Assembly: GCA_008632985.1 (NCBI GenBank)
Contig: QPGO01000022.1
Span: 62,001-126,000, forward strand
DNA from: Psammoneis japonica
Taxonomy: Eukaryota
Direction: 5' to 3'
DNA length: 64,000 nt
Part shown: positions 15,781-56,632 of the stretch, piece by piece
Numbering within the stretch: position 1 is the stretch's first letter
Layout of the letters: each line of letters starts with the position of its first letter
Made by a program: the position numbers and the translations under genes
Notes under the pieces: model-generated
The model's input: the letters and a program-made list of their open reading frames with translations, nothing else
Databases searched by the model: none
Told to the model about the DNA's origin: nothing

Positions 15781-15816
15781 GGATGCTCTCTTGGCATCCT
15801 TCTGGAATTGCCTGAG

Positions 15817-16206: not shown

Positions 16207-16299
16207 TAAGACCTGGAGCCACGTCCTCCTGTGGTCGTGCTTCCCAGGTGCACGTTAACAACATTGCGTTGCCACGCACAAGAGGCTTGTGCACGGTCT

Positions 16300-24802: not shown

Positions 24803-25194
24803 GATGCACTCCAGCCCTGGGCGGGACTCCGTGCGACATGGGCCCATGGAATTCTGTGTGCGACCTCTGCAGCACAAGAATTTAATTGATGGATGTGTTT
24901 GTCTTCAACATCAAACAAACGGCCAAGTTTGTGGCGCAACTGTGCCTCTTGCCACTCAACGTTTTTGCAAACAACGCGCCTGCCCTGCACGATTCTCAAG
25001 ACATTGTAGAATCATGCTGCAACAAAAAATGTCAAAAGTTGTTGAATGGATCGCTCAATGAGTGTGCCGTAAAATGACACAAAACATCACAAAAATCATG
25101 CAGAAATCTGTGTGCGCGACATGCGACGCGATTCAAAAAACTGTGGACATCACAGCTCAGTGGTGCGAGGTCCCACCTGGACCTGGAACACGTC
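24803..25194 (+). mobile_element. MITE family A, copy 3
   Basis: Same TIRs; perfect TSD GGCC. Confidence 0.85.
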
Positions 25195-25899
25195 GGCCAA
25201 GCCCCTGGCACCTCCCTTCAACAAAACCACCATCACCTTCACTGCCACCTCGGGCAGCTCATGCTTGCTCCAACAAAGTGCCCAACACACCACCATCCAC
25301 ATCAACAAGACTCCATGTCCGACTGAGCGACCGAGCTGACATCTCTGTTTGCTTGATCATGTGTGGGGCTCAAAGCATTGCAAGCATCGCACAAACACAT
25401 GTCTTGCAATCGTTTCATCCAAAGGAAGAAGCAATGCAAACAAACAAGCAAGAAGACTTGGGAGGTCGTCAACACTCTTGGCTCCTTCAAAAAAGACGGC
25501 CAGGCACCCCTGTGCTGGAGGTGCCCAATCGCTGCCTGCCCCCCAGGATGCAATCCTTTTGCTCTCATCAAAACAATCCATGCAGAAGGTGGGATCACCA
25601 AGGAGCCACAGCTGCAAGCAGCATCCTCAGCAGACACTTGAGTCATGTGACAGAGATTGCAGAGTGCAACAAAGAACGCTCCTTTTCACATTGAGCTGCC
25701 CAGCATGACGCTGGTGCTGCACCAGCTCAAGCTGCCCTGCACATGACACATGACATGGCATCACATGTCATCCCACTCATTGCCAACACTCATCACTCTG
25801 CACTCCACACCCGCGATGCCCGCCAACTCCATCAATCTCTTGGGGTCACAAAGCATCTTGATTTTCTGCAGGAGAGCAAACAAAGATCAAAGCAAAACA

Positions 25900-26289
25900 G
25901 ACGCGTTCCAGGTCCAGGTGGGACCTCGTGCCACTGAACTGTGACACCGACAGTTTTTTGAATCACGTCGCATGTCGCGCACGCAGATTTCTGCGTGATT
26001 TTTTTGACATTTTGTGTCATTTTACGGTGCACTTGTTGAGCGATCCGTCCAACAACTTTTGACATTTTTTGTTGCAGCGCGATTCTACAATGTCTTAAGA
26101 ATCGCGCAGGGCAGGTGCGTTTGCAAAAACGTCGAGTGGCAAGAGGCACAATTGCACCACAAACTTGGCCGTTTGTTTGATGTTGAAGACAAATGTGTCC
26201 ATTGATGAAATTCTCGTACTGCGGAGCTCGCACGTGGAATTCTACGGGCCCAATGTCACACGGAGTCCCACCTGGGGCTGGAGCGCGTC
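25900..26289 (-). mobile_element. MITE family A, copy 4 (inverted)
   Basis: Reverse complement of copies 1-3; perfect TSD AACA. Confidence 0.85.
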
Positions 26290-29200
26290 AACAGCAGATT
26301 GAGAAAATAAATGCCATTGAACAAATCACACCGAAATCATGCAGGCATCATTTTTGCATGCACCCATTGATTGTTGCAGCAAACTCAACAAGATGGTGGG
26401 AAAAATGAAGCAGTGCAAGGGCACACATCACGACAGAGAATGCCTTGATTTGTTTTTTTTTACATGAATCGGGACACGACAGCAGCAATGCCAACATTGT
26501 GTCAGCACAAACAAAACAACACTCATTTTTTGTTGCCAGAGCCTGTGGTCTGGGGACTCGAAGTCCACTGGCTCGAATGTCTTTCTTGGAACACACCTGC
26601 ACAGCCCTGTCAAAACGTGGATTGACCACACAAAGTCATCCACAAAACACAGTGTTGTGGCTCTGTGCATGTTGCGGTTGTTCAGAAACACAGCACCGGC
26701 GACATGATGTGATGTCATGTCTCATTGTGTTGCAGCGTTGGAAGCGTTGAGCGTTGGTGTGTGTGAGGTGTGATTGTTGTGGTGTCGTGTCCCTCAGTTT
26801 TGAATGTGTCGTCCTTCGGTGTTTGTGTGTCTGTGCATGGTAGTTGTACGCTTGTCATGTCCCTCTGACATTGGGTGTGCTGTCCCTCTGATTCGATGTG
26901 TCACAGAAAATGTCTGTGAATGCACGTGGATGGGACCGCACATGAGTCGTTCGACTAAAATATCTTTTGGCGCGCTCGTCCGCCATCTCAAAATCTTCGT
27001 GCTTTTTGCGCGAGAAAAAAAGACATCGACCAAGAACCAGGAACATCGTTTGCGGCGGCGTTAATATTGAAAATCGAGCAGGAATCTCATCTGGAGAGTC
27101 CTTTCATACCTAACTGGGAGCATATGGCATGGAGATTCCTGCTCGATTATATCCTTGAGATGCTTTTTTTTTTCACATTACTACTTCTCATGCGTTTTCG
27201 TTGTTGCTGCCTCCATCCACCAGAGTCCAGCAAAGGTTTCAAAGGTCTCTCCGACCGAAGTACATGCCAGAGTACTTATGTTCATTGATCGATTCAATAA
27301 AAATGGTGGTATGGATGGATTTACTTTCTTGGGTGGAATCATGTGAGCAGAAACAAACACAGATCCACCTTGAAACAGTTTGCCAGCCCCCACGTGACAA
27401 CCAAATCGACTCGGAATGCAACAATATTCGTCATGCATCGTTGTGAATTCATCTATTTCTTACCATGAGTGGTCCATAGCAATGATAATGGGTGGTTGGA
27501 ATAAATGACAAAGTGTTTCAAGGGCTTGAGATGCCGGAAGCTGTTCGACTGGAGACATTTGATGCATCCGGCTCATCCGCCAAACAAACATAAGAAGCTC
27601 TTCTAGTGATGTTGTGACCGTTAGCATTCCACTATTGATGCGAAACATGCCTAAGCCAGTCTTCTAGGGCTCTCAATCTTGGTTGTCGAAGCCATTGTAT
27701 TGCCTCAGCACTCGTTGCGCGCTTCGATTGCATCAGATTGGGTCTGGGATTGTCGCAGAGCTGAATGCGACCTGCTGCAAGGCCAATTCTACAATTGATG
27801 CTTGAGTATTCTGACAGAAATATTGCTGATGTTAAGAGACTGTGTTTTGGAGTGTATCTGACCTGGACGATGGACGTCTCTGTCCGAGCATGTGCCGTTC
27901 CTGCCACTGCACAAACAATCGAGTCTGATCGACTTTTGCGAGATGACAGTGCACCTTTGATCCGTTTCTTTATACAAAGATCCTTTAAAGTGTCAAAGGC
28001 GCAATGTTGAACTTGAAAATGAGAGGCTCTCTTGGAACAACAGCGGTCGATGTGATGTAACCAGCCCTCGAATGACTCACGCCGCGGACGCGTCAAAAAT
28101 TGAGATTAAAATGCTCCCTTTGGCCTGCAGAACTCTTCTGATTCTTATTCTTTCTACAACAAGAGGCTAGAAGTGTTCAACCTAACAACAAAGAAGTCGA
28201 AAACAATAGATTTTGTGAGTAAAACAAAAGAAAACGTTATAAAGCCTGCCATCGAGTGCTCACCTCACAATGCATGCACCGGCACCCGTGTCATGATCGG
28301 AAGCATCAAAGTGATGCTCTCGTCCAAATTTTGCGATGCTTCTCTTCAAAACAAGTTCAAAGCATCATTAGGTCCAAATACAATAAAGCACGGAAATTCG
28401 GTCGACTGGAACTTCTATCCAGATGCAACTTCAACTTGAACAAGTGGGATCTTGCACGCGTCCTCAGGTTTGCAAGCCGAAAACAAGATGTTTTGAACTG
28501 TTTTCATCCAAAAAAGTTATATGCTACAATTGAGGAAAGAATATATGACAGTACTATAATGTATTGCTGGGAATAAGCTTACGTGTTACCGCCAGAATCG
28601 TAGCGTTTCATCATGGTCGCACACATGAAACTCCTTCGGCTCATCGTCGCGCAATAATTTTGCAGTGGTGACGTCACGGGACTTGTTGTTTTTTTACGAA
28701 TTGTTCTCGTACAAACGTACGTATGACGTCAACATACCAGGCCTGCGGCGGCTCAGCGCTACTGCAGTGCCCCCTGTTTCACGCAGTCGCGCGCGCGCGA
28801 TCCGCGGCCGCGAACCGGAATTCATCCTGGAATATATATCTTAGAGTTTAAAGATTTGAATGAACTTCATTTTCCATAAATCCATGACGTCATAAAGTTC
28901 GTTGGAATCCGAGTGCTTCATCAGCAATCACAAACGATCTTCACTCTCACTCACAAAACCACGACACTCAAATCGCTTTGCCGTTGTCGTTGTTGTTGCT
29001 GCTGATACGAGTGTAAGTGCGACTCTTTGCATCTTCGTCCCGTTTGATGCTTATCATTGATTTTCTTAGTTCTTATCTAATGAAGCCGTTGTTCTTTGTA
29101 CAGTGTACAACTGCAGGGAAATCAGCTTGACGCACACGGTTTTTGAAACACATCAGCTACAAGCACGTCTCCGTCGGCACCGTTTGAGGTAAGAGTCGCT

Positions 29201-36328: not shown

Positions 36329-36429
36329 CTGTGTCACGGCAGCGCAAACAGTTAGACAGAGCCGACAGCAATCTCATCAAACGCACATTTCATCAACTCT
36401 GCTCACCCGATCCCCTTCACAAATCATGG

Positions 36430-37138
36430 GTTCAATTCTGAAGTGGAAGAATTCAACAACAAGAATCTTCAGAGGCTTGGCAAGCCCATTGCTCTAGTGC
36501 GAGCTAAAAGCACTGGTGACGGCAAGAAAAAGACGTCTGATTCCTTTCGAGGCTTGGAGAATTCGATGTACCTCAGCGTCGGAGCAAGAGCAATGCTTAC
36601 CATGAATGTTGCCCAGTCGGCGGGATTGTGCAATGGAGCAACTGGGACAGCAAAGGACGTTGTGCATGACGAATCAGGCTCGGCTCCATCTCTTCCAAAG
36701 TTTGTGTGGGTTGACTTTGGCAGAGACTACGGTGGAGGATCGTTTTTCCCCGACGATGACAGTCCCCGAGTTTGGGTGCCAATTCACCCTGTGACTGCAG
36801 CCGTGTACACTCGAAAGCGAGATGATACGGGCTATGATGAACATACTCGTACTATGTTGCCCTTGAAGCTTTGCTGGGCGATGACTATTTGGAAAGCTCA
36901 AGGCCAAACCATCAGGTCCCATTTTGTCGTCGATTTGTCCAACCGCGAGAAGGAGCATGGTTTGACCTACACTGCTTTTTCCCGTGCCCAATGCCTTTCA
37001 GATATTGGATTAGTCGATGGTATTACGCAAGATCGACTTTGTAAGAAGGTACGCAAGCACAAGAAAATGGATAAGCGTCTACAGGAGGAGAGGCGTCTAG
37101 AAGCGCTACTACGAACGACCATCCAAGCTTTTCGATAA
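36430..37138 (+). pseudogene. C-terminal half of a PIF1-family (Helitron-like) helicase, 5'-truncated
   Basis: 'LSVGARAMLTMN..GLCNGATG..WVPI..RTMLPLKLCWAMTIWKAQGQT..VVDL..GLTYTAFSRA'. No Walker A upstream. Confidence 0.85.
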
Positions 37139-37531
37139 CCATTCTGTACTGTAGATCAATCCAATCCAGCTATTTTATCCTTCTATCCTACCACATTCCT
37201 TGAAAACAACCAATCACCACCTTTGAGGGCAGGCGAACCCTATCTAACTGAGATTCGGGTCGTAGCACGTCGAGTGGCACCCCCTTCCTTGGAGGTACCA
37301 CTCTCAGTCTCACCGGGGAGCAACCCCTTGGCTCTCGTGGGCCGTCTTGCAGAAAAAAATTACCGAGGCGCCACTGCAGTCAGCTACCTTGGTATAGTTG
37401 CTCGTAATTATTAGAGACGAGAGCAACCTCGTCTGCCCTTTATATCGGGACTTTCCCAAAAGTGGTAGATTGTAGATTTTAAAATGAAGAATACTCCTCA
37501 CCCTTGGACCACTCCATATAATATTCAATTT

Positions 37532-37713
37532 GGTATCCGCTTGAGTCACCCAGTAAGGTGTTGGTATCCACTTGAGCCGCCCAGCAAGGTATTGGCATCC
37601 GCTTGAGCCGCCTCGTATGATGTAGTATCCGCTTGAACCGCCTCGTATGATGTAGTATCCGCTTGAGCCGCCCGCATGACATGGCATCAACTTGAGCCGC
37701 CCCGCATGATGTG
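37532..37713 (+). repeat. Six ~30-bp tandem units (core GTATCCGCTTGAGCCGCC)
   Basis: Directly visible minisatellite downstream of the helicase fragment. Confidence 0.9.
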
Positions 37714-38160
37714 ACATTTTCCCACAGAGAAATATGGACAAAGATTAAAGGAAAACAAGAAGTTGAGAAAACCATAAAAATACCGTGGAGTGATTTGATT
37801 CACTCACTGAGAATGTGAGAATGAAGAAACACATTTCGGCTCAAGAGAATATTCCCATTTGTTTTCATTGTGAATCAGTTTTTGGGTTGACAACAGCAGG
37901 TCCAATGGTGTCAACACAACATCGATAATGCTCGTTTTCAGCGGCGACGGCCATTGTTGCAGGTGCTCCGTGTTGATGATGTTTGTGGTTTGTGGTGCGG
38001 GGAGAAACGAGAAACGGCGCCGTCTTCAACGTGCGTGCGGCTCACTGCGATGCTGTGCAAGCGCCTGTGCTCCTGATGTGAGCGCCGGTGCTGCGCTCGC
38101 TCGCTCGCTGCGCAGCGCCCCAGACTGCGCGCGGCATGTGTGTTTTTTCATTTGCAGAGC

Positions 38161-38521
38161 GTGGCTAACGCCACCAACGCTGCTTGGGAGTTCGTCCTGC
38201 TGGCTGTGGTGGCAGTTTTGGTGGCTTCAGGCTTTGCTGGGGTGACAACTCCCCAGCCCAAAACTGCCACCAGGCAGCCCAGGGAGGGAGAGGAGGGTCA
38301 ATCACAGCTGCTCTTGCGGCCTGGACAGGCGGCGATGAGCTGCAACAAAGAATGCCGTTGGCACTCGGTTCGTTCAAGGCTGTGAGTGGCTGCGGCATCT
38401 GTCCTTCTCCCTTCCAGCCCAAATGGCTAATGCCACCAATGCTGCTTTGGAGTTCGTCCCACTGAATGTGGCGGCGGTTTTGGCGACTTCAGGCTTTGCT
38501 GGGGTGACAACTCCCCAGCCC
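38161..38521 (+). repeat. ~100-bp direct repeat pair (38161-38259 and 38423-38521)
   Basis: 'TGGCTAA.GCCACCAA.GCTGCTT.GGAGTTCGTCC...CTTCAGGCTTTGCTGGGGTGACAACTCCCCAGCCC' occurs twice. Confidence 0.85.
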
Positions 38522-41500
38522 CAGAACCGCCGCTGCTGCCAATCTTGGGGGCAAACAAGCAGGGCAGGAAAAAGAGGCAGAGCCGAGGGTGAGAAAATCA
38601 AGGGATGGCAGCAAGTGCAGCTTCATTTGCAATTTGTTGGGCAGCCAGTGGGACGTCGGAGCCAGGCAAAAGAGTGAGAAGTTCCCGTGAATTCCAAGTG
38701 CCGCTGCACCGCCGCATCAACCCCACAGTGCAATGACAATGCAAGATGCCAGCAGTTTGTTCTTCCCAACAGACAAGTGACACAATCACACCACCAAAGA
38801 AAACTGCAACACTGAGAGTCATGCCATCACACCTCCAAAGAATGACAAAATGCCATGAGTCGTTTTAACGGATCATCAAGCTTTTCATCGTCAACGGAAA
38901 ATGCCGAAAATGCCACTGCAAGTGGAAGGTCACAAATGGACAATGCATTTGATGGTTGCCTTGATGCTTCCACATTTGCTTCACAGATGCAACACCAGGA
39001 CAATGCATTGAAAAATGTTCAAAACATTTTGACAAGCGGGAGGAAAGTGACCAAGCGGAAATTGAAGGAAGCCAACAACCAGCTGGCATTGGTGCAAAAC
39101 AGCCTCTTAATTTTGCAAGCGGCAACAAAAGGAGCAACTGTGGCAGCTTCTGAAGCTGCTAGAATTCCCAATGTTGGACATGTCCACAACCACTTGAACA
39201 GTGAAAGGGCATGCAAGAAGCAAGTGGAAGAGCAGTTGAGAAAAAACCAGAAGCCGTCTCCATCTCAAGAATCAAGCACAGCACCGGCAGGTCAAAAACC
39301 TGTGCTGGCAAAATTGGAGCCCCTCATTGCATTGGAGGACATGTGCAAAGAAAATCAGCAGCTGCAATCAGAGACTCATGCCCAAAACAAGAGACCTCAT
39401 CTCACGCCGTCATCTCAATTTCATGAAAACTTCTGAATGCCGACAAACAAGGAATCAGGATTGCACAGAAAATTGGAGTTTGTTGACATGGTCCTGCTGG
39501 CTGTTCCCACATCAAAGCATGCCAAAGACATTGATTTTGCAGTGGAAAACTCAATGACTCCATTGAGCAGCCAGTGAGCGGCTGACAGGATCATCCAAAA
39601 GTGATCGCATGCCGCAGCCATGATGCGCCACTGCTTCTGCTGATGAGATTCAAGTGATTGGCAAGAAGTCAGTTCAAAACAATGGCAAGTCATTTGGGCT
39701 TGACAAAATGAAGACAGCTTTGGCTGATTGCAAATGCCCGTGTCCACAAGAGAAGCCAAGAGGTGTCACGGGTTGGCTCTGGGGAAGAACAGTGAATTGT
39801 CAATGACCAAGACAATGCAGCACAAGACTGACAATCACACCACAGCCAAGCACTCCTTGCAAGCCACTGCAACCTTGGTCATTCCATGCACCCATGCATC
39901 AGCAACTCAAGAACTGTGACACTCACCACAACCACTGGACACTCCAATGGGCAGAACAGAATCTGCCGCTGATGGCAGCTGTGATGGTCAGCCGCGGCCA
40001 TGTCCCCTCCCAAACATTGAGTTTCAGAGTGGTGCCACATCCTTGTTGCTCCACCCAAAGGCACAGTCCAAGAAGTGCACTGCTGGAGATCTTCACAAGA
40101 AGGAAGGTGCCCACGGATTGTGTCGCTTCTGCACACCTGTTGGGTTGGGAAAAAATTCATGTGCCAACACAAATTTTGGAGTGCAAGATGATGAGCATCT
40201 AAAGTGCTCTGAGCTCACCAAATCCAAGCATGTTGACAATGCTCTCCACTCCTTGCATCCATCCAAGGAAATCAGCTGAGACATGAAAGAGGGTGGTCAC
40301 GCAGTGATGAAGATGTCACAAATTTGCTCACCTCAGAAGGCCCTGATGGTTTGTTCCAATGAGATGCTGAGACCTTGAAACACCCAGAAGAGTCCAAAGT
40401 CAGCGGCACTCTTTGGCTCAAGAAATTGTGGCAATGGCGGGTCATCTGGCTGAGTGGCAAAGACAGCGTCTCTGAACTCTCCTGGATTTGAAAGCTTTGG
40501 GTTGCTTCAGATTCACTTGACTGGGACCAAGAGACAAATGGTGTCCCTCTGCAGCTTTGACAGCTGCTGTCTCACGCGCATTGTCCTCCAGTGCAAAGCT
40601 GTCCATGTGTGGGTCAAAAAGGACAATTGACTGCATTGGTCTCAGCGCCAAAAGGGGCACATGGAACACAACTTCTCAATTGACACTTGCCTTTTGCACC
40701 AAGTTACAATCAAAGCAGTGGCACTTGCTGCCAGAGAGTTCATCCCACAACGGCAGAGACTTCTGCACTTGGGCCAGTGCCGTCTTCATTGCTGTGTGGC
40801 TTTTTGCACACAGCCGGCACAGTGCCCCCCACTTCTGGCAGACAGATGTCTTTCTTCCTGTGCCTCTTAGAACAGCAGATTGGCAAGTCATCATTCAAAA
40901 TGGTGAAGCATGCACACACACACACCAGAGTGACAGATCACACATGAAGATGACCGCCTTCATGTTTGCCATGTCATGCTGGCGTGCACGCTTTGGTTCC
41001 GTTGTGGCATCGATCCACACCCGGGTGCTTGTTTTGGCTTCACTCCGCTTTTTCCTCAAACAGGTGCTGAAAATCCAGCAAAGAGAGAAGTGCACCAAAA
41101 AGCTGGAGGAAAACAACAAAAAACAATGGCAAGTGCACATGTGGGATGACTTGTGTGCAGAAGGGACACCAGCAAGTGCTGTGGTGCATGTGTGGGGTGG
41201 TGCCATTGAAAAGCAATTTCAAAGCCAATGCATCAAAAGAAAAGGGCAAATGTTGTCAAAAAACAATTCAACAATTAAAAGCAATTGTGATTTAAAACAG
41301 ATCAGTTCACAAAATTGATCAAGAGCAAAAGACAACAAAGACACACATGAAACACAAACAACAAATGCATTGTGAAATCAAATTTGGAACGTTGTTTCAC
41401 AAAAACAGCTGGAATGAAAAACACAAAGTGAAAAGCATCAAAACATGCAAATGAAAGCTGACATCAACATGTTGCGGCCTCTGATGATGGGAAAGGCAAG

Positions 41501-41829
41501 AGGAATGGAAATTCATTCAGGACCCCTGTCCATTTTATGAGCTTGGTGCCATCAGAAGCAATGGCAAGAGATGCCATGTGTGAGACAGAAGCAACATTGC
41601 AGCATTGCTTTTGTCATTCAAACACTGCGCTCTTTTTGTGTGTTTGTTTCATCCAACGCTTTGGCATCTCAAACCCAAGTCCATGGCATGTGTGAAGGCG
41701 TGCGCTGCTGCATTTCAGCGTGGCTCCTGCCAGTCACAGGGAATCAGATGTGGAAAAGGAGAACACTGGGATTTGTTGGCTGCCATGCTCACCTTGATTC
41801 TTCTTGATCATGAAGCCCAATCTGCAGTG

Positions 41830-42794
41830 CTTGGTGCATGTCCTTCCTTTGGCTTGATCCACAAGCCTGTCATGAGAGTCGTTGGCTCAATGTGTGGTTT
41901 GGACTTTCAAATGGGAGACAGCAAGCGCAGAATGTTGAAACTCCATTGGCTGTGTTCAGGGATTTGAACAAATGCATTGGACAAATGGTGCACAAGCACA
42001 TGTCTGCACTCTCAGCTTCTTTCTGCTGGAGTTTGCACCTGAAGGATCTGTGTCAAGTGCACCAGCACTTGTGGCACCCAAAGCACAGATGCTTGACGTG
42101 TCCAAGAGCATCAACCTCATCAACAGTTTGCACAGCTCAGTTCAATGTGGCCTCTCTCCTTGTTTCCATGACATGAGAGCTGGGCATCAGCTTGGTTTTG
42201 GTGCCTTTTCTGACCCTCTGGTGGGCTGCGGAGGCTGCCGAGATGGGATGACAAGAAGTTTGGCAGAGCTTCAGAAATGTTCATGCATGAAGCCTCAGGT
42301 GAAACTTCTGGAGCAACTGTTGATGAGCTCGCCACTCTTTTGACATTGGGAAGGCTCAGCACCAAGAACAGGAAGCACGCTGCAGCTGCTTTTGATGCTG
42401 CAGTGGTCAACGTTGAAATCCAAGGATTTGTGAGACAATGTGGCCACATTGCAAACCTTGCAATTTGGTTGAACACCCCCTCAAAACTCCGGCAATGGCA
42501 TGTTTCCATGCCTGGGGTGGCAACTGCTTTGTGGCTGGTAGAGCCATCAAGGGTGGCAGAATCTTGGGAGAGTGTGGTCCTTCCGACATGTCTGAGAACA
42601 GCAAAGTTGATGTTGGAAGAGGACAGCTCATCCCAACAACTTCTTGGGATCTGATCTGGCCCAGCATTGCACAATGGACCGGCATCACCAATGCTGAAGA
42701 CTTTGATCATGTCTGCCCAAATCGTGGCAATTTTGTTTCCACATTTGCCGCATTTGATTTGTTTGAGAATGCACCTCAAGATTCAATCCCGTGA
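41830..42794 (+). pseudogene. DUF1800/DUF1501-type protein fragment with internal deletions
   Basis: 'VDELATLLTLGRLS' and C-terminal 'HAWGGNCFVAGRAIKGGRILGEC..VGRGQLIPTTSWD..IAQWTG..VCPNRGNF'. TpA- and CpG-eroded. Confidence 0.7.
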
Positions 42795-43562
42795 CCCATC
42801 CCCAGAGGCAACAGAGAGATGTCTGCACCTGGAGAGCAGCAGCCTGGCAAAAGCCCCTCTCCGCCACCCATGATGCACCCCAATGCAAACTTGGAATCAT
42901 CTGCAGTGCCCCACATGGTTGTCGCCTTTGCTTCCAGCATGCTGGTCCTGTCAGTCCCAACCGGGATTCAGCCAGTTTGGTGCCTTTCCGCAAGTGCACA
43001 TTGGATGCCCATTTGTGCATTGGATGCCCATTTGCAGGAGACAAGTTGGTGAGTGACATTAGAATGAGTAACAACAACAAGAAGCTGCTGCTTCTCAATG
43101 GACAGTTCGGAGATGGAGTGCGCTCAACAGACAAAACCTCACACAATTGAGTTTGTCGAAAGACAACTGCGACGAGACGCGGTCTGCAAGAATTCGCATC
43201 AACCGGAGCACCCTTTTATCGCACTGTGCTCCCAACAAGGCTACCACCGGCAACCAACACAATGACAAAACAGATCACAAGCTCTACTTGCACAGCACAA
43301 AACAAGAGGAGGCAGTTCCCACCTACATGATGCGAATCGAAAAAGAAGCAGCAGCAAGACCCGCCTGAGCAATGACAAATTCTATGGCCACCATCGCAAT
43401 CACTTGCGAACGGAATAGAGTAACCCCCCAAAACCCCCGCTCTGCATTATATAATTTAGACCGCTGCTTCATTATGCATGAGTCGCAATGGTGAAGCACG
43501 CGCTCGCAGTGCCGGTACATCCATTGGTCGTCCCTCTCTGTGCCCTGCTAGACACTGAAACC

Positions 43563-46500
43563 TTAAGGATTTGATTCCTCAATTGAACAAATAATAACGA
43601 AGGACTCATGCCATGTAGATTTTTGGCATGAAAGGACAGTTTCAGCACTCGCAGTCCTAGATGTCCATGCTGAAAAAATGACAGGTATAATGAAAATATA
43701 GCTCCTCATCGAACGAGAACTGCGGACACTCCCGACTTCACCTCCTGGAGTCGGCTTGGGAAGTCTACTACTAGCAGGCTTGGAGCGACCTGCCGACTGA
43801 ACACCGTTCAACTGGTTTTCGTCATTTGTGCTGTCGCTGTGACCACCTGAACTTGACGACTTGATGTTTAAAGCTGCGTCTCGCGGCGGACGAGAACTAG
43901 TACCATGGCGGAAGGAATCCCTCTCCTCAGAAAGCTTCTCCTCAAACGAAGGCTTATTCTCAATCTCCAACTTCCCACCAGTGAACAAAGGGTGTTCCAA
44001 GACTTCCCTCATCGACTGGACGCGTTGGTCAGGGTCATGATGCAAGAGTTTCCTCCAACAAGTGACGGGCCACCTCATTCTCCTGGGGTACATGTTTGAG
44101 CGCCTTCCTCAGGCTGCTATCATCCCAAAGACCGACCTTACTAACTTCCGAAGAACTCATGGCTCGCTTGCCTCGGCATGCATACGGGGAGAGTGGGAGA
44201 CCCGCAATAGCCTCGTATACAACGACCCCATATGCCCAAATATCGTACGTTGTGTGGGACGAGATCGAGACTACGCAGGCGGAGACATTCTTCTTACCAA
44301 TCGCAGCGCGCTTGTTGTCAACTAGTGGGAGACCCGCAATAGCCTCGTATACAACGACCCCATATGCCCAAATATCGTACGTTGTGTGGGACGAGATCGA
44401 GACTACGCAGGCGGAGACATTCTTCTTACCAATCGCAGCGCGCTTGTTGTCAACTACGATTGCTTCTGGCGGGTGCTAAAATCCACGATTTGGATCTGTC
44501 GGTTCTCCAATCCTGACACTCCCACCGACTCCCAGCAACTTCCATCGGCTTCCAAACTTGCCAATATTGTGAGTTCCAAAGTCACCATGAATAAGTCCGT
44601 GCTCGTGCATGTGCAGCAGCGAAATACCAATCCTCTTTAGCGCCTTCTCGGGGAACTTTTTTCCGGACTTGCGAGTGTCCAGCATGAGATTCTCGGCGGT
44701 TGTATCGGCGCCTTCCATCGTGATGCAGTATCCAGGCTCCGCCATAGCCTCCGAGTACGCAGCATGCTGCACTGTGTGGTGGACACTAATAATGGCTGGC
44801 ACATAGTGCCTCGACAGGTGGTAATCTTTTCGGACTTTCAGTTCACGTTCAACGACATCAGACCTTGAAGTCAACTTCGCAATAACTTGTTGCCCCTTCT
44901 CTTTGCGAATTCGGCGCAGCTTGTCCTCGATACTCTGTTGGGACTTGGTGCTAAGCGTAGATCTCATGCTATTCCGAGATACCGCAGAGACCTGAGACGA
45001 ATCGTCCCAATCTTCCACATAGTCATTGTCCCCGCCGTCGACTTTGTCATCGTGGAGCACCGTAAAGCCACTGCCTTGCTGCTTGGGTGGTTCGTAGCGC
45101 AGCGCATAAAAGATCTGCGTATCGCTCACTGGATTCGTGTACGCCGGTCGTTGATTCACGACTTCCAAAGTATTGAACAGACGGAGCATGACACGAAGCT
45201 CATGTTTGCAAACAGGCGAAGCGGCCGTAAGAGCAATCCTACCATCGGGACCCTCGACGTGCGCAAGGGCAAGCACCTGGGGCTGCGTACAAGTTTGCAG
45301 GATTTTCGTTACAACCTGGTGATAGAGGTCGTCGGTGTTCGAGACAATGTGGTTCCACGAATAGTGGTGAGGGAGGAGCTGGGCCCGAACCTTTTCCTTA
45401 AGGTCGATCGGCATGTCACGCTTCAACAAATTGTGAACAATAAAGTGAGAATGCTCGTTCTCAGTAGCGACCTGAATGGGAAGCAAGCCAGTCTTCCGAT
45501 CAACGGAAGTTGCAAGCTGTAGAAGGAGAACAAAGAGGCGGCTAGTGAGAATACGAAGAAGGAAACTCGATCTACATAGGCGACCGTTCCAACACGTACC
45601 TCTGGTGCATGATTGAGCAAGCCCATAATCGTCCTGTCGTCTGCATTGTGCTGGAACGCCAAAAAGAGCGGGCTGTGACCGTCTCCGTTTAGAACTCCAG
45701 CACCCTCTGGGAACTGCATGATAATCGTGTTGATCACTGCCGATCTGCATTGATTCTTAATTGAAATGTGCAGAGGCAGGTCTCCATTCATATCGGTTCG
45801 CGACACCGCCGAAGAAAAGCAAGTCAACAACGTCTTGACCACAACCTGATCAACGACTTCGCCACAACGAAGAAGTAGGTGTAGCGGAAGATCGCCGTTT
45901 TCGTCGGTCCTCTTGGCCGACGCAAAGTTCTCCGCAAGAAGAGCCGTGATGACACCGATAGAAGCATAATTACGACAAGCAATGTGAAGAGGAAGGCCTC
46001 CACCTGAGTTATTGGGAGGACGATACACCATCGTATAAGCACCTTCAGGAGACTTTGAGAGCAAGAACTTAACCGTATCTACGGCGTCAAACTCAGCGGC
46101 AACATGAATAGGAAGGCGTCCCTTTTTATCGGTGTCGTTGATTCCCTCCTTGTAGGCACTGTACCTAGATAATCTCCAAGGCTGCCAAGTTGTCGTGGGC
46201 CGAAGCATGGTGGATGGGAAGAGCGCCCATATTATCTCTGTGGATAAGAGCTTTTGGATACAAAACGAGCACCATGTCGATTAGAAGAGTCCAAGCCCCG
46301 TTGTGTCGCGCAATCATATGAAGCGGTAGTTCTCCGCTCTTGGGTTCAGGGGCCTCTGATAGCTCTGGATGCTTGTCCAGCACATTCTCAACCATCGCCC
46401 AGTTCTCTTCTTGAATGTGATGAAATAGCTCCTGTTGCATATCAGAAGAGACGGCAAGGGCGTCCGTAGGAGTAGGAGGGGGCAACGAAGGCGTGATTTC

Positions 46501-49500
46501 GCGCTGAATCGGTTCGGGCGATTGGAACATTACAACCGGCGATCTGACTTTCTGTTTGACTTCCTCTTCTTCCACGGCCTTAAGCAAAGCCTCACGTGTC
46601 CGACCACCCCGATAGATCGCTTGCATGGCAGTCACTGCCATCACAATATCTTGTTCTGTCATTGAGTTGGATTCTTGCGCAATGAGCTGCATTCTGTGGT
46701 TTCTGTAGGAGCGCTGGATCTTAGTTGCAACATTCGAACGCGTACTGACAATGCTATCCACAGACTTTCGCGCGGAATGCCCTCTCCATAATTTCTGCAC
46801 CGTAGTCGCGGCACCATCCGTTCTCATCCGGCTCGCCCGCATGGCGGAAAGCTTCATGCGGAGGATACTTTGAATCATAATAGCTGCTCCCTTCATCGTG
46901 AGGAAGTATGTGCGAACAATCTTGCCTCGAACAATCTTCTGAATCGCACTCGCAGCAAAGAAGAATTTGTCCGACCTCATCGCCTCGATTCTGTCAAACG
47001 CTTCACGTCGGAGAAACACCTTTGTGCGTCCTAGCTGTAGACCAGCGACCGCACAACGGGAAGCAAATCCAGGGACAAAAATTCCTCTTCGGAGGTAGGA
47101 CGAGCGACATCGTGCCCCTCTGTTTTACCTCCTCTCGAAGTTCTGCCGTTGCTGTCCCTTTTCTTTCGTTGCTTATCTTCTGGCGTCTTTACTGAACTTT
47201 CGACAACCAAGGAAAAGGCAGGACCTCGTGGACCTGTCATTTGCTTCGTTTGCTGATCGGATTGCCGCTGTTTAGAAGCGATAACGGAATGAAAATGTCA
47301 GCGACACGAATCGATTCAACCTATAATTCGAATATTCAAAAGTAACTTACATGAGCATATTTCGGAGACGACAAGAGAGTTTCTCTACGCTTCTCCTCCA
47401 TCTCCAGAAGCGCAACAATGTGCTGATGGTCGGCTTCCCACAAATCAAATGCAATTTTCGAAATGAGACGCTTGAGCTCGGACACTTGTTCGGTGTTGGA
47501 CCGTGGCGAAAACATGGGAGACACAGGGCTAGTATCTTCAAAGTCACCAAGGATGTAGTATCGAGCCATAAACACATCGTGGGCGTATCGTGTTGGGTAG
47601 CCTGCACGACTTACACGGACAGCTTCCAGTACACCTCCACAACGAAGCTGTTCGACAATGTTTTTGGGTTCAAAGTAGTCCGGAACCTAACTCATCGTTC
47701 GGTTTGAGGCAGCGAATGTAGTGGGGTACGGTAGTGTCAATCCTCGCACGAAGCGTACGCAACTGCTCGGAGAATTGGGCACCAACAGACTTGGTGGCAA
47801 TTGTGCCGCGTCCCTCGCGATCTTCTGATCTGACATACTTTTGAATGTCCGAGATGAGGTGAAAGTCCGAAGACGTCAACAGGTCAGCGGAGGCAGCAGG
47901 AAGCTGGTCCTTGTTCTTTTCGAGCCATGAATCCGTCGTGTACTCTACGTAACCGGCGTAGTGTTCAATGCTAAACTTGTAGTCCACGCGTTGCGACGAA
48001 GTTGCGTGAAATCTAGGATGAGAATCGCACCGACCGTAAATATACCGAGTGAATTTCTGATCCATACTCTTTGGAAGGATACATTGCTCATCAAGGAGAG
48101 CGAGAATACCCCTGTGCTTCTTGTCAATCAAATCAAGGACGTCCTGGTTGTCGGGGAACGAAATGAACTTCCACAGGATTCCCTCCTTCTCGTATTCCAC
48201 TTGTTCAATCTTAAAGACAAACTTGTTGAACTGCTGCTACAGAGCTTCGTTCGTGTAGTTGATACAGAGCTGCTCGTAGTTATTAATGTCAAAGGTTTCA
48301 AAACCAAAAATATCAAGCACACCGATGGATGCTTCAGAACGCATGGACGGGTCCTCCTCGATACTATCGTTCACTCGTTCGACAATATAGTCAAACGCCG
48401 CGCCATAGACGGCCTTGATCAGGGCCTCGCATGCCTTGGTCGATTCGTCAATATGAAGCGGCTTGTGCACAATCTCATTTCCAGCCAGAATAACTCGGGT
48501 GGATAGAGAGGCAGCGAGCCCCTCAACGCTCACACCCAAGAGCGCCGTAGTCTTCAAAGCAGCTTCTGTCTCATCCAAGGTGCAGGACTCTCCATCCTTA
48601 GAGGCGGTGAACGTAATGTTACCAGCAAAGAGGACAGCCATGACAAGGCGCATGAGAGCCTGAACGGTTTCTGGTGAAAAGCCAATCGTAATCTGAATAC
48701 ATAAGAGAGTTTTAGAAAAACAAATTAGTCGAGAGAAAAACGAAGAAAAGAAAAAACGTGACGACGAAAACCACTCACCATTGCGTCAAGCATTTCTTGA
48801 TGCGTCACTTCATCGCTCACACCGTCGCGGCGATCGTACGTCCCACTCTGATTAAGCAATTTGAAATCTTCGAAGTGAAGGTTATCAATATAGAATTGCT
48901 CCCTTTCCGCCAGGGTAGCGCTGGAGAGAAACTGATAAAAGACGTGGTAGTTCCGTTCTCCTGCTGCTTGATGGATGAGTCGAACCTTTTCCAATAGATA
49001 AGTTTCAATTGAAGCGCCAGACAGCTTTCCAGACCTTGTGAAGCTAATGTCAATATATTTTCCAAAGCGGGAAGAGTTGTCGTTGCGGATCGTCCTTGCA
49101 TTTCTAAAGGATTCAAGAATCGGGTTGCTCTGCAACACTTCCTGTTCGATACTGACGTCTTCGGCAGCACCCTTGGGAAACTTACGGGGCGAAGAGCTTT
49201 GCATTTCAGCTCGCTTGCGTGAAAGCATGGCAAAGTAGTTCATGACAATCTTGGTCGTGACCGTCTTTCCCGCACCACTCTCCCCAGAAACCAAAATACT
49301 CTGGTTGGTCGGATTGTCTAGGAGGGCAACTCGACCCTTGCCTCTTGATACCTGACGTGACTGTCCCATCAGTGCAGAGTTCTCAAGTCCCCTTGTCATT
49401 GCACGGTATGCATCATCGGCAGTCTGGTATACGTGTGGTGGTAGCCTTTGATGAGACACATCTCTTCTACTGGGACGACGCTTAAAAGGCGTAACCATCC

Positions 49501-50104
49501 CGTCGACCCCGTTCTCGGTGTTAGCTCCGACCCCCTTCTCCCCCTGAATTCTATAGCGATCCATCATTTCAGACGAATAAAGACCCATTGGTTTGAACGG
49601 GTTGACCGCAATCAGGATGGGACCTGTGGCTGTGTAGATAATATCCGCATCGTACCTGAGTCGCAGGGCGTGCAGAATAGCAGGTTCGTGTAAATGCGTT
49701 AGCCCAATCAAATCGTCGACTCCTCCAACCACTGATTCGTCTACTTTGTTGGAAGGACTCGCAATAACTCCCGCTTCTGGGTCCTCTCCCACCAGATGGA
49801 AGCTCGTAGGCAAATTTCTCAGCTTAATGTCGTCGTGATCTGCAGTTTTGAGCTGTTCTGGATCCACCGTCACCACCACTTCGAACTGGTCTCGCTCATC
49901 GTAGTAACTCGAGCGCTGTCGAGCAATACTCGGTCTAGAAGGAGTCATACCCATTGTCATCTCAATGTTTGGGTCGTCCCTAAGGGTCAGGTTAAACATA
50001 TCAACTCCCTGCACCACAACTGGTGTTTTATCCGTAATAACAGCCGGCACCCATCCCCAGTGAGATCCGTCAGAGCGGAGCCATACGTGCGCTCCCACCT
50101 CCAT
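43563..50104 (-). pseudogene. Unconventional myosin (motor, IQ motifs, ankyrin repeats, kinase-like tail) with multiple disablements
   Basis: Motor motifs 'GESGAGKT', 'NDNSSRFGK', 'LDIFGFE', 'PHYIRCLKPN'. IQ repeats, ankyrin 'LPLH' repeats and kinase-like 'IHGDF..NIGK'. Introns 48693-48778, ~47268-47350 and 45517-45599. In-frame TAG at 48237-48239 and 44476-44478; frameshifts near 47686, 47067 and 46165. Confidence 0.9.
44191..44454. repeat. Near-exact ~130-bp tandem duplication inside the myosin kinase-like region
   Basis: 'AGTGGGAGACCCGCAATAGCC...GCGCTTGTTGTCAACTA' is repeated back to back. Confidence 0.9.
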
Positions 50105-51008
50105 GGTTGATGCCTTAGTTTGCTATCTGGTCGTGTAGCAGAGCGAGTAAGCAAGAGACTAATGAGTATGGTGGGTTGAATAATAATCAATGCAATCGGT
50201 CGACTTGAAGTCGCATCACACTGCAATCGATCGATCGCGACAAACGAAAGGGCCTGGAACAAAGTACCCAACAACATGCCACAGAGGTCACGAATCACAG
50301 TGTGCTCACCAGGGGATCTTTTAGAGGTAGTTCTGAGTCATCCTACCAAATTTTATGGCCCCAAGTGTCACCAGTGGTTCGTTGTATCAACGCATCCAAG
50401 GGTGGGCGAGGAGCCCGGCAACGCAAGCTTCCGCCTTTCCACTTTACCCAGTGCAAAGCCTAAACTGGTCGGTACACTACCAAGATCTTCCAAAAAGCAT
50501 GGGTGATGTCATGTTTTGACAATGAAGAGAATGTGGTTGTAGAGTAGGAAGAAAGGGTCGTCACACCGTAGACCAGATAGACACCAGATAGACACCTGCA
50601 CACATGAACTAGACACACAAAAAATCGCTCGTGAGACATGCGATTTTAGTCAAAACAAAGCCAAAACTCTCCAACATACTCACAGGCTTATCATATTTTG
50701 ACTATGATAAGATTGTCTGACAAATGCCAACGTCATAAGTGTCCTCCAGGCTCCATCGCGTCGTTTTGTTCCCAAGGCATGCACTTTTCCAAAATTTTGA
50801 CGGCCGAAAAACGACATGCCGTGATTACGAGCCGACCAAGACCCCGAGAACCACATCAAGCACGTCACATATCCAGCATAACATTCATAATGGGCACACC
50901 ACAGGATGTAGAGTGAGATGAAGAGTAAGGCTCCCAAACGGATACGCTGCAGTGGTGCAAACGACGTGAAAAGACACCAATGTTGCAGAAGCGATAATCG
51001 AGCAAATC

Positions 51009-52035: not shown

Positions 52036-52439
52036 CATCATTGCGATGTCATTGCCATTCTCGATCATCGACACTCTTACTCTCTTTCGTGTGATTATGA
52101 CGACAGAAATCGTTTTCGCCAAAAATCGGAAACGGTTGGATAGTTTTTAGTTTTGTACAGAAAATGCGATAGTAATGCTGTACGTAGAATCAATACCATG
52201 ACCTAGTATGTAGAACATCGGAAGGACGAGCAGACGAGCCGTGCGCAGACGTAGGTAGACAAGCCGCACGGAAACATTCAACATGTGACGAAGATCTCAC
52301 GCGGACAAAAAGGCAAAGAGAGCAGAATTTGATCCCTTCGAATGGATCCGATCGCGCAGAAAGATGTCGGATGTCGCATCACGCATCAGCCGGCCATGGC
52401 TCATGCAAACATGACACCCCACTGCCGCTGATGGCCGAC

Positions 52440-53880
52440 GGCTTTTGAGATCTTCGGGCTACACAACACTTCCCGTGTTCGCTGGGCTGGCAAATCTCTC
52501 TCCTCAAGAAGACTGACTCCTGTTTGCCCCAATCTCACCACTGGTTCAACACAAGAACAAGAGCCGGCACAGCAGGGCCCAGCATGAAGTTTGCACAAGG
52601 GTGCTAAATGTGACGGACTCGTCATTGTTCAACAAGGCACCATCAAGACAGTCAATGTTTCGATTGGTGATGCCAAGGTGCAGGACTTGACCTTTGGTTG
52701 CAATGGAGTCTTTTTGGGGGCAGAATCTCACCCAAGACGAAAAGCCATGGCCAGGCGACGCGAGGGCGCTGACGGACGGAGTCATGTTTTACCTTTCACG
52801 AGACAACTTTGTCAAGGTGGTGGGTGGACTCGATCTAGACAAGTTCATTGCCAAGAGCTTGTACAAGCACATGCTGGTGCGTTTTTGACAGTGTCTCACG
52901 ATGAAAACAAGCACATCTTTTTCCGACAAGAGGCAAGGTCGTGACGCATCCAACGATTTACATTGTCATTTCGGGAACAGTTTTGGTGTCCACCAACAGT
53001 TTGTCAGGCGGAATGACCAAGATTCTTGAATCAAATGGCATGTTTGGACACGAACAACTCGCACCAGAAACAAAAGGAGAGCCCACAAAAGCGACATGCC
53101 GGCACACCATTGCAGCGGCTCAAGACGTGACAATGGGTGTCTTGACTCTGGAGGATGTCAAAGGGGTCATTTTAGATCAAGCAAGACTGAGCAGAAAGAT
53201 TGAAGAGGCACCCACCAAACCGGGATGTTCGATTCAACTCGATTCCTTGAAAATGCTCAAACCACTGGGAGCGGGTGCCTTTGGACAAGTGTGGCCAGTT
53301 TGTGAAAGTGACAACCCAAACACCGGCGCAACAAAAAACTGCTCATCAAGAAGGCAACGCCAAGCAGCAGCAATGGCAGCCAAAAAGCAGGCAAAGCGAT
53401 GTGTGTGCTCAAGGTCCAACACAAGCATGACACACTGAAGTGCAACCAAGCAACGGGAGCACTGGAGGAGAAAGCAATTGTGCAAAAGATGGGTCATCCC
53501 TTTGTCATGCGTCTGCTCGATTCGCACAAGGACGAGGAGTGTCATCACATGCTGGTCAATCCATTTCAAGGTGCAGAGCTGTCCAGCATTGTTCACACAC
53601 ATGAATTTGACAGTGTTCCCAAGGATGAGGTTGTTTTCCATGCCGCGGCAGTGTGACATGCTGGACAGTGATGGATGTTGTGTTTTAATCGATCTTGGTT
53701 TTGGTGAGCATTGCACAGGTGTCATTTGGCGGCAGAGGTGTGACTCTTTTAAATGCCGAGGAATGTCTTCTCATGTTGTTTGCTCATTGCTTCTTGAGTC
53801 CCCCACAGCCTTCAGCGCACAGGGTCGTGATGCCGATCACGACCAAGAGGAGATTTGGAACAAAATTGTCAATGCTTCCA
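52440..53880 (+). pseudogene. cGMP/cAMP-dependent protein kinase (cNMP-binding + AGC kinase) remnant
   Basis: cNMP-like 'DGLVIVQQGTIK' and 'IYIVISGTV..GMFGHE'. Kinase motifs 'LGAGAFGQVW', 'VCVLKVQHK..EEKAIVQKMGHPFVMRL..QGAEL..FHAAAV' and 'MLDSDGCCVLIDLGF'. Deletions and frameshifts present. Confidence 0.85.
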
Positions 53881-53967
53881 CTTTTTCGGCATGATGATCC
53901 CCCGACTGAAAGTGCGGGAAGTGGCATCAGCCTGACTGCTGCAAGTGCGAGAGCTTCTCGGTCGACG

Positions 53968-54616
53968 ATGGCTCAAACCTCCAACACAAGTTCTCCAGAC
54001 AACAATGTCGTGGTCATGGACAGCGGATGTGACTTGCATGATGAGTCGTTTCCAAAGCAATTTGACACTGGCCTGATTTCACGTGAAGAATGCAATGAGA
54101 AAATGCAGCAACTCAGAGAACGCTTGGACGAGTGGAAATGCGGAAGAGCGACTGTTGCGATTCCAACCATTGCCTTGTTTGTTCTTGTTGCCTTTTTGCG
54201 GCCCACTTCACTGCCCATTTTTGGAGCAGCCCACTGTTTGATCATCCTGGGTGCATTGCAGCCATGGCTGTGACCATTGCTTCTGTATTTTGCCTCCTCT
54301 GTCGGCACTCACAACGGGAATTGCAGAAGCCAGTGGCAGACGTTGAAGACTTGCATCAACTCTGGAGAGGCCGAGGCATCCACGTGACAATGAAATGATG
54401 TGCAAATGTCGCCCAATCAATCCCACATGTGCAACGTTCATCAAGAGCAATGCATGGAGGCAACCTGCATCTGGGTCAAATTGTTGTTGCATCGTCATGA
54501 CACTGATCGATGAAAATGAGGAAGATGTGCAAGACAATGTGAGCACAGGAACAATCATGACTGACGCAGCCGCTAGAGTGGAAGCGGCGATGAAGCAAAC
54601 GAGGAGGGAGAGGTGA
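53968..54616 (+). pseudogene. Small membrane protein remnant, Erf4/Golgin-A7-like
   Basis: 'ESFPKQFDTGLISREECNEKMQQLRERL', two hydrophobic stretches, then 'LWRGRGIHV'. Frameshifted. Confidence 0.4.
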
Positions 54617-56052
54617 ATGTTGCAGATGATGTCATTTGGAAGCAGCGTGTTGGGTTGTTGCGCACTGCGCAAGCAGCAGCTTGGATTGACTGAAGCTTTT
54701 TGAAAAGTTCAAGCCATGAAATCATGAGCGTTGATTTTAAATGGCGCGTTTTGTGCTTCACGCACAGGAGCCTCGGGACATCCTTTGAAGCCGTGCAAGC
54801 CCGCCTTGACATGCTGTGGCCCTGCCAGAGCAGAACTTGCCACACAGCGGATGCCATCTTTCATGAGAGCAGCAATCGGCAGCTGTTCTTTAACCGAATC
54901 GGAGTCATGGGATGGCATCTGTTTTCCAACTGAATCGTTGCTCTAAAGTGAGATCAACGACCAGCATGCACGCTGGGTACAAAAATGGGAACGTTTGCAA
55001 GAGTTTCGCATGGAAGGACTCACGATGATAAAATGCTACACAGAAAATGGTCTCTGTCGGTGGGTCTAGTTTATGAAAAGGATTCACGCTTTTTGACAAA
55101 CCAAGCAACAACAACGAGTGCAGCTTTCCGTCTCAGTTGCTTGTCCTCGATCCGCACAGCAACTTGAGCTGCGCTTTCACTCCGAATTGGACGCCACAAC
55201 AGAGCACAGATCTGCAGAGCATTTCAAGCAGTTTGGAAGAAAGAGAGCCCGTGAAGCAAGGTGGCAAAACATGAGAGGGAGATCTTGTTCAGGAAGCCTT
55301 GCCAGCCAAATCCATTTGCCGTCAAGCATGATGATCTCATCACTCTTGCAAAAGACACTGCAACTGTCAATGGCACCGGAACAAAAGAAAATGGCAAGTG
55401 TCTCTCGCAAGATCTTTTGCTTCGTCGAAACCAACCATAAATTTTTTTATAAAAGCACTTGGCAGCCTCAAGTTGGAGCAGTCCTTTGACATTGAATCTC
55501 AATTCCATGGATGGACGGTTGTCTTGTTGTTCTCCCGAACCGTTGCTGGTTCATGTCGCGACAACAAGAAGCCACCCACACAAAATGCTGATGATTCTTC
55601 CACCTCAGTGTCATCACATTGACTTTAACTAAGATGGAAGGGTCACAGAGTTTACTTTCCATGCAGCCGACCGAGCCCAAGGAACAACTGAGGTGCTTGC
55701 GGCGAAGCGTTTGTCTTTTCATTGTGGAGTTGGTAAACACCACCACCTTTTCCTGAGGGCAAACAATGCAGAAGAGTCTTGGGTGCCATCTTGCTTCCTC
55801 GATTGGTTGTTTTCCGCAAAGTGCATGTCTCGCAAGCAAGAGCTGGTTGTGGCAGAAAAAGCTTGAGCTCAAAATGATCAATCCTTACATTCTGACTTGC
55901 ATCGGAGGATGCATTGAAGTCAATGCTGCGCATCCTGGGCCATCAGTTTGGCGGGGCCAGCAGATGCTTTCGCAGCATGAGGCGGGGTGGACTGGTGGAC
56001 CACGACGACTTTTGAACTTTTGTCACTGGCGAGAGTGAGTGCTGACAAATGA

Positions 56053-56632
56053 TGCCTCTCTGTCACGTTTGTCGTTCGGTTGTCACAAAGGTGGGCGGTC
56101 GTGGCGGCAGGCATTCGTTGAACTCCAACACAGCACACACGGTGGAACAGTGCGTTCTGGCAATGACCAAGGTGCAGCAAGCCAGGATGGTTGCTCAACG
56201 ACAAGTCATTGCCACTGGACAACACTTGCACAGCGCATGTGCCACAAGCCCAATGATCCACATGTCCCCATCCATGTTGATCAAATTGCGGTCTGAATGG
56301 TTTGGCCTTGCATCTGACTGCAAGAGGCCCGGGCTCTGCTGAGAGCACCCATGTCGTCCCTTGCACGACAGCGTCGTTGCCCTCTCTGTCATGTTCATTG
56401 TTCGGTTCTCACAAAGTTGGGCCATCGTGGCGGCAAGTGTGCATTGAACTCCAAAACCAGCACACACTGGTGGAACAGCTCGCACTGGCGCATGTGCCAC
56501 AAGCCCAATGATCCACGTGCCCCTGCCCTGCACAGTGAGATCCATGTGTTGGGCAAATTACGGTCTGAATGGTTTGGCCTTGCATCTCACTGCAAGAGGC
56601 CTGGGCTCTGCCAAGTGCCCATGTCATCCCTT
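56053..56632 (+). repeat. Diverged ~250-320-bp tandem duplication
   Basis: 'CTCTCTGTCA.GTT..TTCGGTT.TCACAAAG.TGGGC..GCATGTGCCACAAGCCCAATGATCCAC..GGTCTGAATGGTTTGGCCTTGCATCT.ACTGCAAGAGGCC' occurs twice. Confidence 0.8.

Follow-up and report, generated by a model that had tools for sequence, protein, structure and literature searches.

TpA erosion of transposon-rich DNA in the diatom Psammoneis japonica and its flanking-base preference

TpA-depleted domains and their residue

The window analyzed here is a 64-kb stretch from the 91-Mb genome assembly of the pennate diatom Psammoneis japonica (C22:62001-126000), and positions are given within this window unless another contig is named. Its block at 37800-43100 has lost almost all of its TpA (TA) dinucleotides. 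The ratio of observed to expected TA is 0.02-0.06 at 38-43 kb versus 0.54-0.74 at 44-52 kb. In the window profile, TG and CA go up where TA drops; CG drops as well, and 39-43 kb is also CpG-depleted. The depleted domains and the control are as follows:

37800..43100, no strand: block with TpA erased, made up of dead repeats nested in one another and a pseudogene (TA profile, TA listing)
1..27000, no strand: another TpA-depleted domain, containing remnants of retroelements and helicase elements; TA is normal in an island at about 18000-19500 (TA profile)
52250..61500, no strand: third TpA-depleted domain (TA profile)
44479..50122, minus strand: myosin gene with normal TA, the internal control; several 98-99% identical copies, uneroded

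The block retains 16 TA versus about 336 expected from base composition, at positions 37850, 37926, 38166, 38428, 38866, 39108, 39160, 40200, 40705, 40868, 41276, 41293, 41536, 42539, 43060, and 43069. With Y for pyrimidine and R for purine, they consist of 10 YTAR, 2 YTAY, 3 RTAR, and 1 RTAY. The initial annotation of this DNA had claimed that the surviving sites are mostly YTAR, and this is borne out: YTAR accounts for 10 of 16 sites in the block and 28 of 38 in four deep blocks (16.9 kb, including 37800-43100; YTAY 5, RTAR 5, RTAY 0), versus 128 of 787 in the normal blocks of the window (YTAY 176, RTAR 245, RTAY 238). The NTAN classes are thus unequally represented in the residue of depleted DNA, and the excess of YTAR over normal DNA is significant for 37800-43100 (Fisher p = 5 × 10−5) and for the deep blocks (p = 6 × 10−14). 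Because normal DNA is poor in YTAR, its composition runs counter to a YTAR-rich residue. In all genome DNA sampled, 214 deep 500-bp blocks hold about 187 YTAR, 50 YTAY, 50 RTAR, and 8 RTAY, in a redundant tally that includes sister copies.

The accompanying statement that RTAY is absent holds for 38001-43000 and fails for 37800-43100, where the sole RTAY, ATAT at 37850, belongs to the left margin, which is less eroded. All eight sites quoted inside the block were right within 2 bases; outside it, YTAR is found within 2 bases of the quoted positions at 1390, 22069, 22208, 24186, 24413, and 58678, with TTAA at 596 and CTAG at 56972. The residual TA at 40200 and 40868 are TA in unmutated paralogs too, and GTAG at 42539 is new, derived from CG. 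Depth from the short-read contigs of run X1, possibly the source sample itself, is present in all of the 30 bins at 36400-44200, and this speaks against an artefact of long-read sequencing.

Substitution and flanking preference in diverged copies

From 1366 alignments among sampled genome stretches, 29 pairs with low background, each matching a TA-rich copy with a TA-poor one, were picked by hand and 28 were recovered; the 19 non-redundant pairs kept contain 1104 TA sites. Within each pair, the TA-rich copy only stands in for the ancestral sequence. In the ten cleanest pairs (646 TA), 247 sites became TG, 262 CA, 2 CG, and 7 another dinucleotide, and 128 were kept; TpA>TpG/CpA makes up 509 of the 518 changed sites. 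In the mutated lineages of six polarized families, TA>TG is seen at 189 of 348 sites, versus 40 of 2230 for AA>AG, 13 of 2073 for CA>CG, and 18 of 2011 for GA>GG. Non-TA adenines changed at 0.6-1.8% versus 54% at TA, and the change requires a 5' T. Five copies of one element show 8-18 opposite outcomes at shared sites per copy pair, and were therefore hit separately, after insertion.

TA was kept at 125 of 213 YTAR sites (0.59), 222 of 585 RTAR or YTAY sites (0.38), and 74 of 306 RTAY sites (0.24) among the 1104, and the two asymmetric classes separately kept 126 of 291 (RTAR) and 96 of 294 (YTAY). This is in line with the rate order predicted by the initial annotation, RTAY > RTAR = YTAY > YTAR. 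YTAR contains neither TAY nor RTA on either strand, so survivors alone cannot separate an effect at +1 from one at −2 of the adenine. The direction of change separates the A of TAY from the A of RTA: at YTAY and RTAR sites there were 271 changes at the A of TAY and 92 at the other A (p = 1 × 10−21). Fits on direction only do not separate +1 from −2 effects.

A competing-hazard fit gave rates of 1.55 for TAC, 1.62 for TAT, 0.46 for TAG, and 0.37 for TAA, and a TAY/TAR ratio of 3.9-fold (3.3-5.3). A 5' ATA raises the rate about 1.8-fold, and sites where +2 is not A are about 2.5-fold faster (+2C 2.7, +2G 2.6). With the mutated adenine marked by an asterisk, T at −3 (factor of about 0.26), CGTA* (0.29), and TA*CG (0.63) are protective. 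T at −3 or A at +2 occurs in 29 of 37 deep survivors versus 368 of 786 normal TA, and the deep survivors of the window lie at the 8th percentile of the rate predicted by the pair-trained model. The profile is approximately (not T)-(A best)-T-A*-Y-(not A), weakened where a CpG is adjacent, and it is graded, not a strict motif.

These rates were compared with those in a 390-bp miniature inverted-repeat transposable element (MITE) with 30 TA sites, which we take to be Sola-like. This abundant element, for which a first look yielded 1589 candidates, ends in inverted repeats and is flanked by 4-bp target duplications that vary in sequence. Its terminal pattern matched 200 places, of which the first 100 were taken, and 91 copies of full length with distinct flanks were used; this set was preferred because a query-derived set is biased towards the query's own TA states. 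The copies may share some hits by descent. Four copies lie in the window:

15817..16206, plus strand: heavily mutated MITE copy, reporter with 30 TA sites
20525..20913, plus strand: older, diverged copy of the same 390-bp MITE
24803..25194, plus strand: copy of the same 390-bp MITE with heavy TA loss, 13 of 28 CG kept
25900..26289, minus strand: copy of the same 390-bp MITE with most TA lost, 28 of 28 CG kept

Over the 91 copies, 853 of 2699 TA site-copies changed versus 123 of 2548 CG site-copies, and the 30 TA sites span all kept to all lost. The mean fitted rate is 1.49 for the 33 TAY adenines versus 0.40 for the 27 TAR adenines (p = 0.002), a 3.7-fold ratio across 91 insertions, with means of 1.36 for TAC and 1.67 for TAT. 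The fastest MITE adenine sits in TAGTACGA. By class, 342 of 450 YTAR, 634 of 812 RTAR, 464 of 716 YTAY, and 406 of 721 RTAY site-copies were kept. The predicted rate order does not fully carry over: YTAR is not clearly slower than RTAR and YTAY together (1098 of 1528 kept), with only five YTAR sites, two of them fast and one of these within the search pattern. This speaks against a simple preference for TAY. The pair-trained model correlates with the MITE rates at rho 0.31 with +1 only, and at 0.45, 0.58, and finally 0.67 in its full form (−3, −2, +2, and adjacent CpG). The proposal of the initial annotation that the A of TAY is the target is thus supported by the 271 versus 92 changes, but only as a roughly 4-fold preference without a strict motif, and TAY alone reaches rho 0.31. 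In the protease, for which a CTA>CCA change had been proposed, a tentative reading of ALPDSG at 13636 on the minus strand would fit that claim.

Internal palindromes with TACG at MITE positions 44-57 and 295-308 are among the least mutated sites, and they might be shielded by protein binding or CpG methylation. The 390-bp MITE is located almost only in TA-depleted domains, a distribution that suggests targeted insertion or retention.

Weak changes were also observed outside TA. Adenines preceded by a base other than T and followed by Y leak slightly in the polarized families (42 of 2684 versus 29 of 3630, p = 0.005), which is suggestive only; the MITE values are 21 of 1937 versus 11 of 1968 (p = 0.08). 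In the cleanest pairs, transitions number 51 of 3226 at RAY versus 4 of 3830 at RAR, and 39 of 2669 at RGY versus 9 of 2629 at RGR. This purine-then-pyrimidine excess is much weaker in normal DNA and partly present after polarizing. Ultraviolet photoproducts of TA, which give T>A transversions, were rejected as a source because transversions are rare at TA.

Strands, order of loss, and domains

Within MITE copies, 3448 of 6896 pairs are on the same strand, versus 3411 ± 31 under site-matched permutation (z = 1.2), and none of the copy pairs tested is biased towards one strand overall (all |z| < 2). Such a lack of strand coordination argues against a processive single-strand deaminase; APOBEC-like deamination of single-stranded DNA would tend to give strand-coordinated clusters, which are not seen here. 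Strand-coordinated bursts had been indicated at 2-10 bp in pairs with control of ±1 context only (z = 3.6), and were rejected when the signal shrank to z = 1.5 (3-10 bp) under site-matched permutation in the MITE. An excess of co-loss at 2-10 bp persists in the MITE (69 versus 52.9, z = 2.7), and may come from neighbours altering each other's context.

TA is lost before CG. One pair lost 43 of 56 TA versus 1 of 46 CG, and the hazard ratios of TA versus CG loss are 7, 8, and 66. MITE copies with 29% of TA lost have lost 1.4% of CG, and those with 84% have lost 21%.

The elements in and around the block, with one insertion in a sister copy, are as follows:

36356..38098, plus strand: Pif1-type helicase fragment and repeated-element end (Pfam PF21530; 43 genome matches)
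39900..40930, plus strand: eroded repeat-family fragment with TA-rich paralogs on C18, C12, and C100
41482..43309, plus strand: eroded, internally deleted DUF1800/DUF1501 gene copy with an open paralog on C56
C331 (stretch L018:4693-5246), at window position 41200: 554-bp MITE with 51 TA, related to the 390-bp MITE; sister-copy insertion, absent from the window

Against the C56 paralog, 60 of 61 aligned TA of the DUF1800/DUF1501 copy were converted by transition. The element at 36356..38098, putatively Helitron-like to judge from Pif1, has intact TA up to about 37800 in the window and in C47, and this stretch was used as an ancestral proxy; five further copies, among them the collinear one on C331, have had their TA erased.

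Both flanks are depleted in 70 of the 91 MITEs, and both are normal in none. Some MITEs inside depleted domains retain all 30 TA; together with the TA-rich 554-bp insertion, this indicates that new DNA landing in such domains is eroded gradually. The stretch at 36.4-37.8 kb is intact in the window and C47 and erased in C331, and the multi-copy myosin region is intact. These patterns would favour a movable chromatin domain over copy counting, while young age or allelic status could explain the intact repeated copies.

The region 35000-64000 is present in up to five 94-99% identical copies (C47, C88, C331, and C55 were compared), which differ in repeat insertions and erosion boundaries and may reflect polyploidy, haplotypes, or segmental duplication. 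Tandem duplications, exact or nearly so, lie at 44192-44456 (133 bp), 51009-52035 (about 374 bp), and 30800-32670 (about 800 bp); the 133-bp one, which three sister copies lack, could be an error of assembly. Among 120 matches listed for a myosin exon, the two that name an organism are from Amphora (67%) and Cylindrotheca (65%), in line with a pennate diatom. Long spurious open frames occur at 59400-60800 and in other eroded blocks, because TAA and TAG stops have been erased.

Candidate enzymes and explanations

The observed substitution, strict for TpA, timed after insertion, and graded in its preference, is best read as the work of a chromatin-targeted DNA adenine deaminase acting on TpA, a reading with about an even chance of being right. 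A host mutator would act on silent chromatin domains and would turn T-A steps into T-G on either strand, site by site, over many generations. An enzyme acting on the A, as the initial annotation inferred, would deaminate it in DNA to hypoxanthine, which would then be copied as G; a zinc-dependent enzyme of the TadA/ADAT fold, recruited to heterochromatin, is the putative agent. The residue would then consist of the slowest sites, the YTAR ones, and especially of YTAR with T at −3 or A at +2. CpG decay would be a separate, slower outcome of cytosine methylation in the same domains.

Several points weigh against a DNA adenine deaminase. A>G and T>C are inseparable in genome data, and some of the influence of context extends to both strands of a site. 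MITE copies show no strand-coordinated clustering (z = 1.75 in lightly mutated copies). Two MITE sites with the same 8-mer have rates of 9.5 and 0.31, a 30-fold difference, so that sequence counts for no more than shape or position in chromatin. A TadA-derived YA editor also takes CA, while here CA is about 90-fold slower than TA. The deaminases examined resemble ordinary enzymes acting on tRNA or nucleotides, none of the exons seen encodes a chromatin domain, and none of the candidate genes is linked to the TpA process.

In the profile search of the genome, PF00383 gave 9 matches and PF14437 gave 5. They look like dCMP deaminases, RibD, ADAT2-like and TadA-like proteins, a dioxygenase fusion, and another small deaminase; the assignments to ADAT2 and RibD are in part our own reading. 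The TadA-like gene on C38 scores 133 bits versus a cut-off of 150, and by inspection its protein has an N-terminal leader suggesting an organelle. To our knowledge, the base that follows the edited A in ADAT2/3 substrates is A, C, or G and not U, which is a poor fit with a fast TAT. Deaminase clades have been described (PMC3239186). PF02137, the ADAR/ADAT1 fold, was found at two loci, C40 and C79. The dioxygenase fusion noted above, also on C79 (stretch L063:313-1785), joins a zinc deaminase domain to a DIOX_N/2OG-Fe(II) dioxygenase and probably belongs to nucleobase metabolism. The 27 genome matches to PF00145 make cytosine methylation plausible, and in Phaeodactylum DNMT5 methylates transposon CpG (PMC9998398). 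C5 DNA methyltransferase reading frames also lie inside TpA-erased DNA (C301, C297; L258, L259, L260, L264), and those on C301 and C297 are possibly transposon-borne and now eroded. On C34 (L261:2348-3508), a weak chromodomain match (24.7 bits versus a cut-off of 25.1) stands directly upstream of a DNA methyltransferase exon.

An error-prone polymerase of the eta/iota type, copying or repairing heterochromatin and inserting G opposite the template T of TpA, is an unlikely alternative. In antibody genes, A/T positions are mutated by polymerase eta, whose hotspot is WA (PMC6423074), a polymerase would hit both strands without long runs, and AAT>AGT is the top non-TA adenine change (18 of 470). 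However, WA covers AA, yet AA>AG reaches 1.8% (40/2230) versus 54% (189/348) at TA, and non-transition outcomes are only 7 of 518 changed TA in the clean pairs. TA is lost without prior CpG loss, which makes mismatch repair at deaminated 5-methylcytosine an unlikely trigger.

Thymine may be the target instead, the T of 5'-R-T*-A being oxidized to 5-hydroxymethyluracil (5hmU) and then 5-formyluracil, which miscodes and would mispair with G. This is rather improbable, although T>C in RTA fits the data exactly as well as A>G in TAY. 5hmU made by TET/JBP is enriched in dinoflagellate repeats (PMC11572971), but the available text does not report T>C hypermutation for it. No match to PF12851 (TET/JBP) was found in the genome, a weak point because the control also matched nowhere.

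A two-step route is quite doubtful; in it, the TpA adenine of silent domains would first be methylated to N6-methyladenine (6mA), and the product would later be deaminated or miscopied. Slow, independent hits on both strands, a palindromic core, and context effects at the duplex level are methyltransferase-like traits. However, 6mA is not known to be a strong mutagen, and in eukaryotes it occurs mostly at ApT within genes.

A bacterial-type TadA using its tRNA motif UACG is very unlikely, even though a TadA-like gene exists on C38 and the fastest MITE adenine lies in the sequence given above. TAT (1.62) is about equal to TAC (1.55), +2 G equals +2 C, TA*CG has a factor of 0.63, and in the MITE the median is 0.25 for TACG (10 sites) versus 1.25 for TACH (9 sites; p = 0.08); the leader of the C38 protein, by inspection, suggests an organelle. 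The TadA likeness drawn by the initial annotation therefore fails for UACG and survives in the order YAY > YAR. That order is shown by the engineered TadA ABE8e-YA (PMC12528748), so the TadA fold can give it, a point in favour of the main deaminase reading. A>G with a 5' T is common to the adenine base editors and the process here; RNA edits by ABEmax favour UACGA (PMC8052359), whereas here TAT equals TAC and TACG is not favoured; the YA editors also take CA. Lastly, a residue shaped by base composition, selection, or new TA, with no target preference, is ruled out by the direction bias of 271 versus 92 and hardly deserves credence: the survivor at 42539 did arise from CG, but rates and directions were counted directly, the new survivors seen are non-YTAR, and YTAR is the rarest class in normal DNA.

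Among known systems, the closest is Bigelowiella natans, in which TpA hypermutation of integrated DNA of nucleocytoplasmic large DNA viruses and virophages was described, the same substitution was measured de novo, and an ADAT2-like deaminase was proposed (Mettrop et al., bioRxiv 10.64898/2026.01.13.699255). The de novo rate in B. natans is about 1000-fold, with the process active in a subset of lines and 231 de novo mutations tabulated. TpA>TpG/CpA on both strands, confinement to regions, and sparing of genes are common to both. The silent regions are of foreign (viral) origin there, and transposon remnants and pseudogenes here; near-complete erasure, accompanying CpG decay, and a measured flanking preference distinguish the present case from the account available. 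The main text of that preprint contains 0 occurrences of "context", "flank", "trinucleotide", "CpG", and "diatom", while its Table S2 may hold contexts. No diatom report of TpA hypermutation was found in the literature searched, which covered few subscription papers. Repeat-induced point mutation (RIP) of fungi likewise ruins repeats by dinucleotide-specific transitions on both strands, but its C>T changes create TpA, which is destroyed here, and copy number alone may be insufficient here, given the intact repeated element end and multi-copy myosin region. ADAR, which prefers 5'UAG on double-stranded RNA (PMC10661471), shares A>G with a 5' U/T; here TAG is slow (0.46 versus about 1.6), and non-retro elements are hit on both strands after insertion.

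TpA hypermutation itself has thus already been described in B. natans, and a flanking preference is measured here in the diatom. Tentatively, and at less than an even chance, diatoms and chlorarachniophytes may share, or have evolved twice, a heterochromatin-recruited natural DNA adenine deaminase that edits duplex TpA singly with an A-T-A*-Y-B preference, an adenine counterpart of RIP. By analogy, the process behaves as an adenine base editor directed to silent chromatin would, with the enzyme family a candidate only. If it is a true natural DNA adenine deaminase, it would be relevant to base editing. The cross-validated six-base rate profile and the lack of strand runs provide a fingerprint for any candidate enzyme, and the 390-bp MITE with its 30 graded sites is a ready reporter. 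Genome-defence mutators described so far mostly target cytosine, and a TpA-directed type has been measured in one alga. In DNA eroded in this way, the ages of transposons and the meaning of long open frames have to be read differently.

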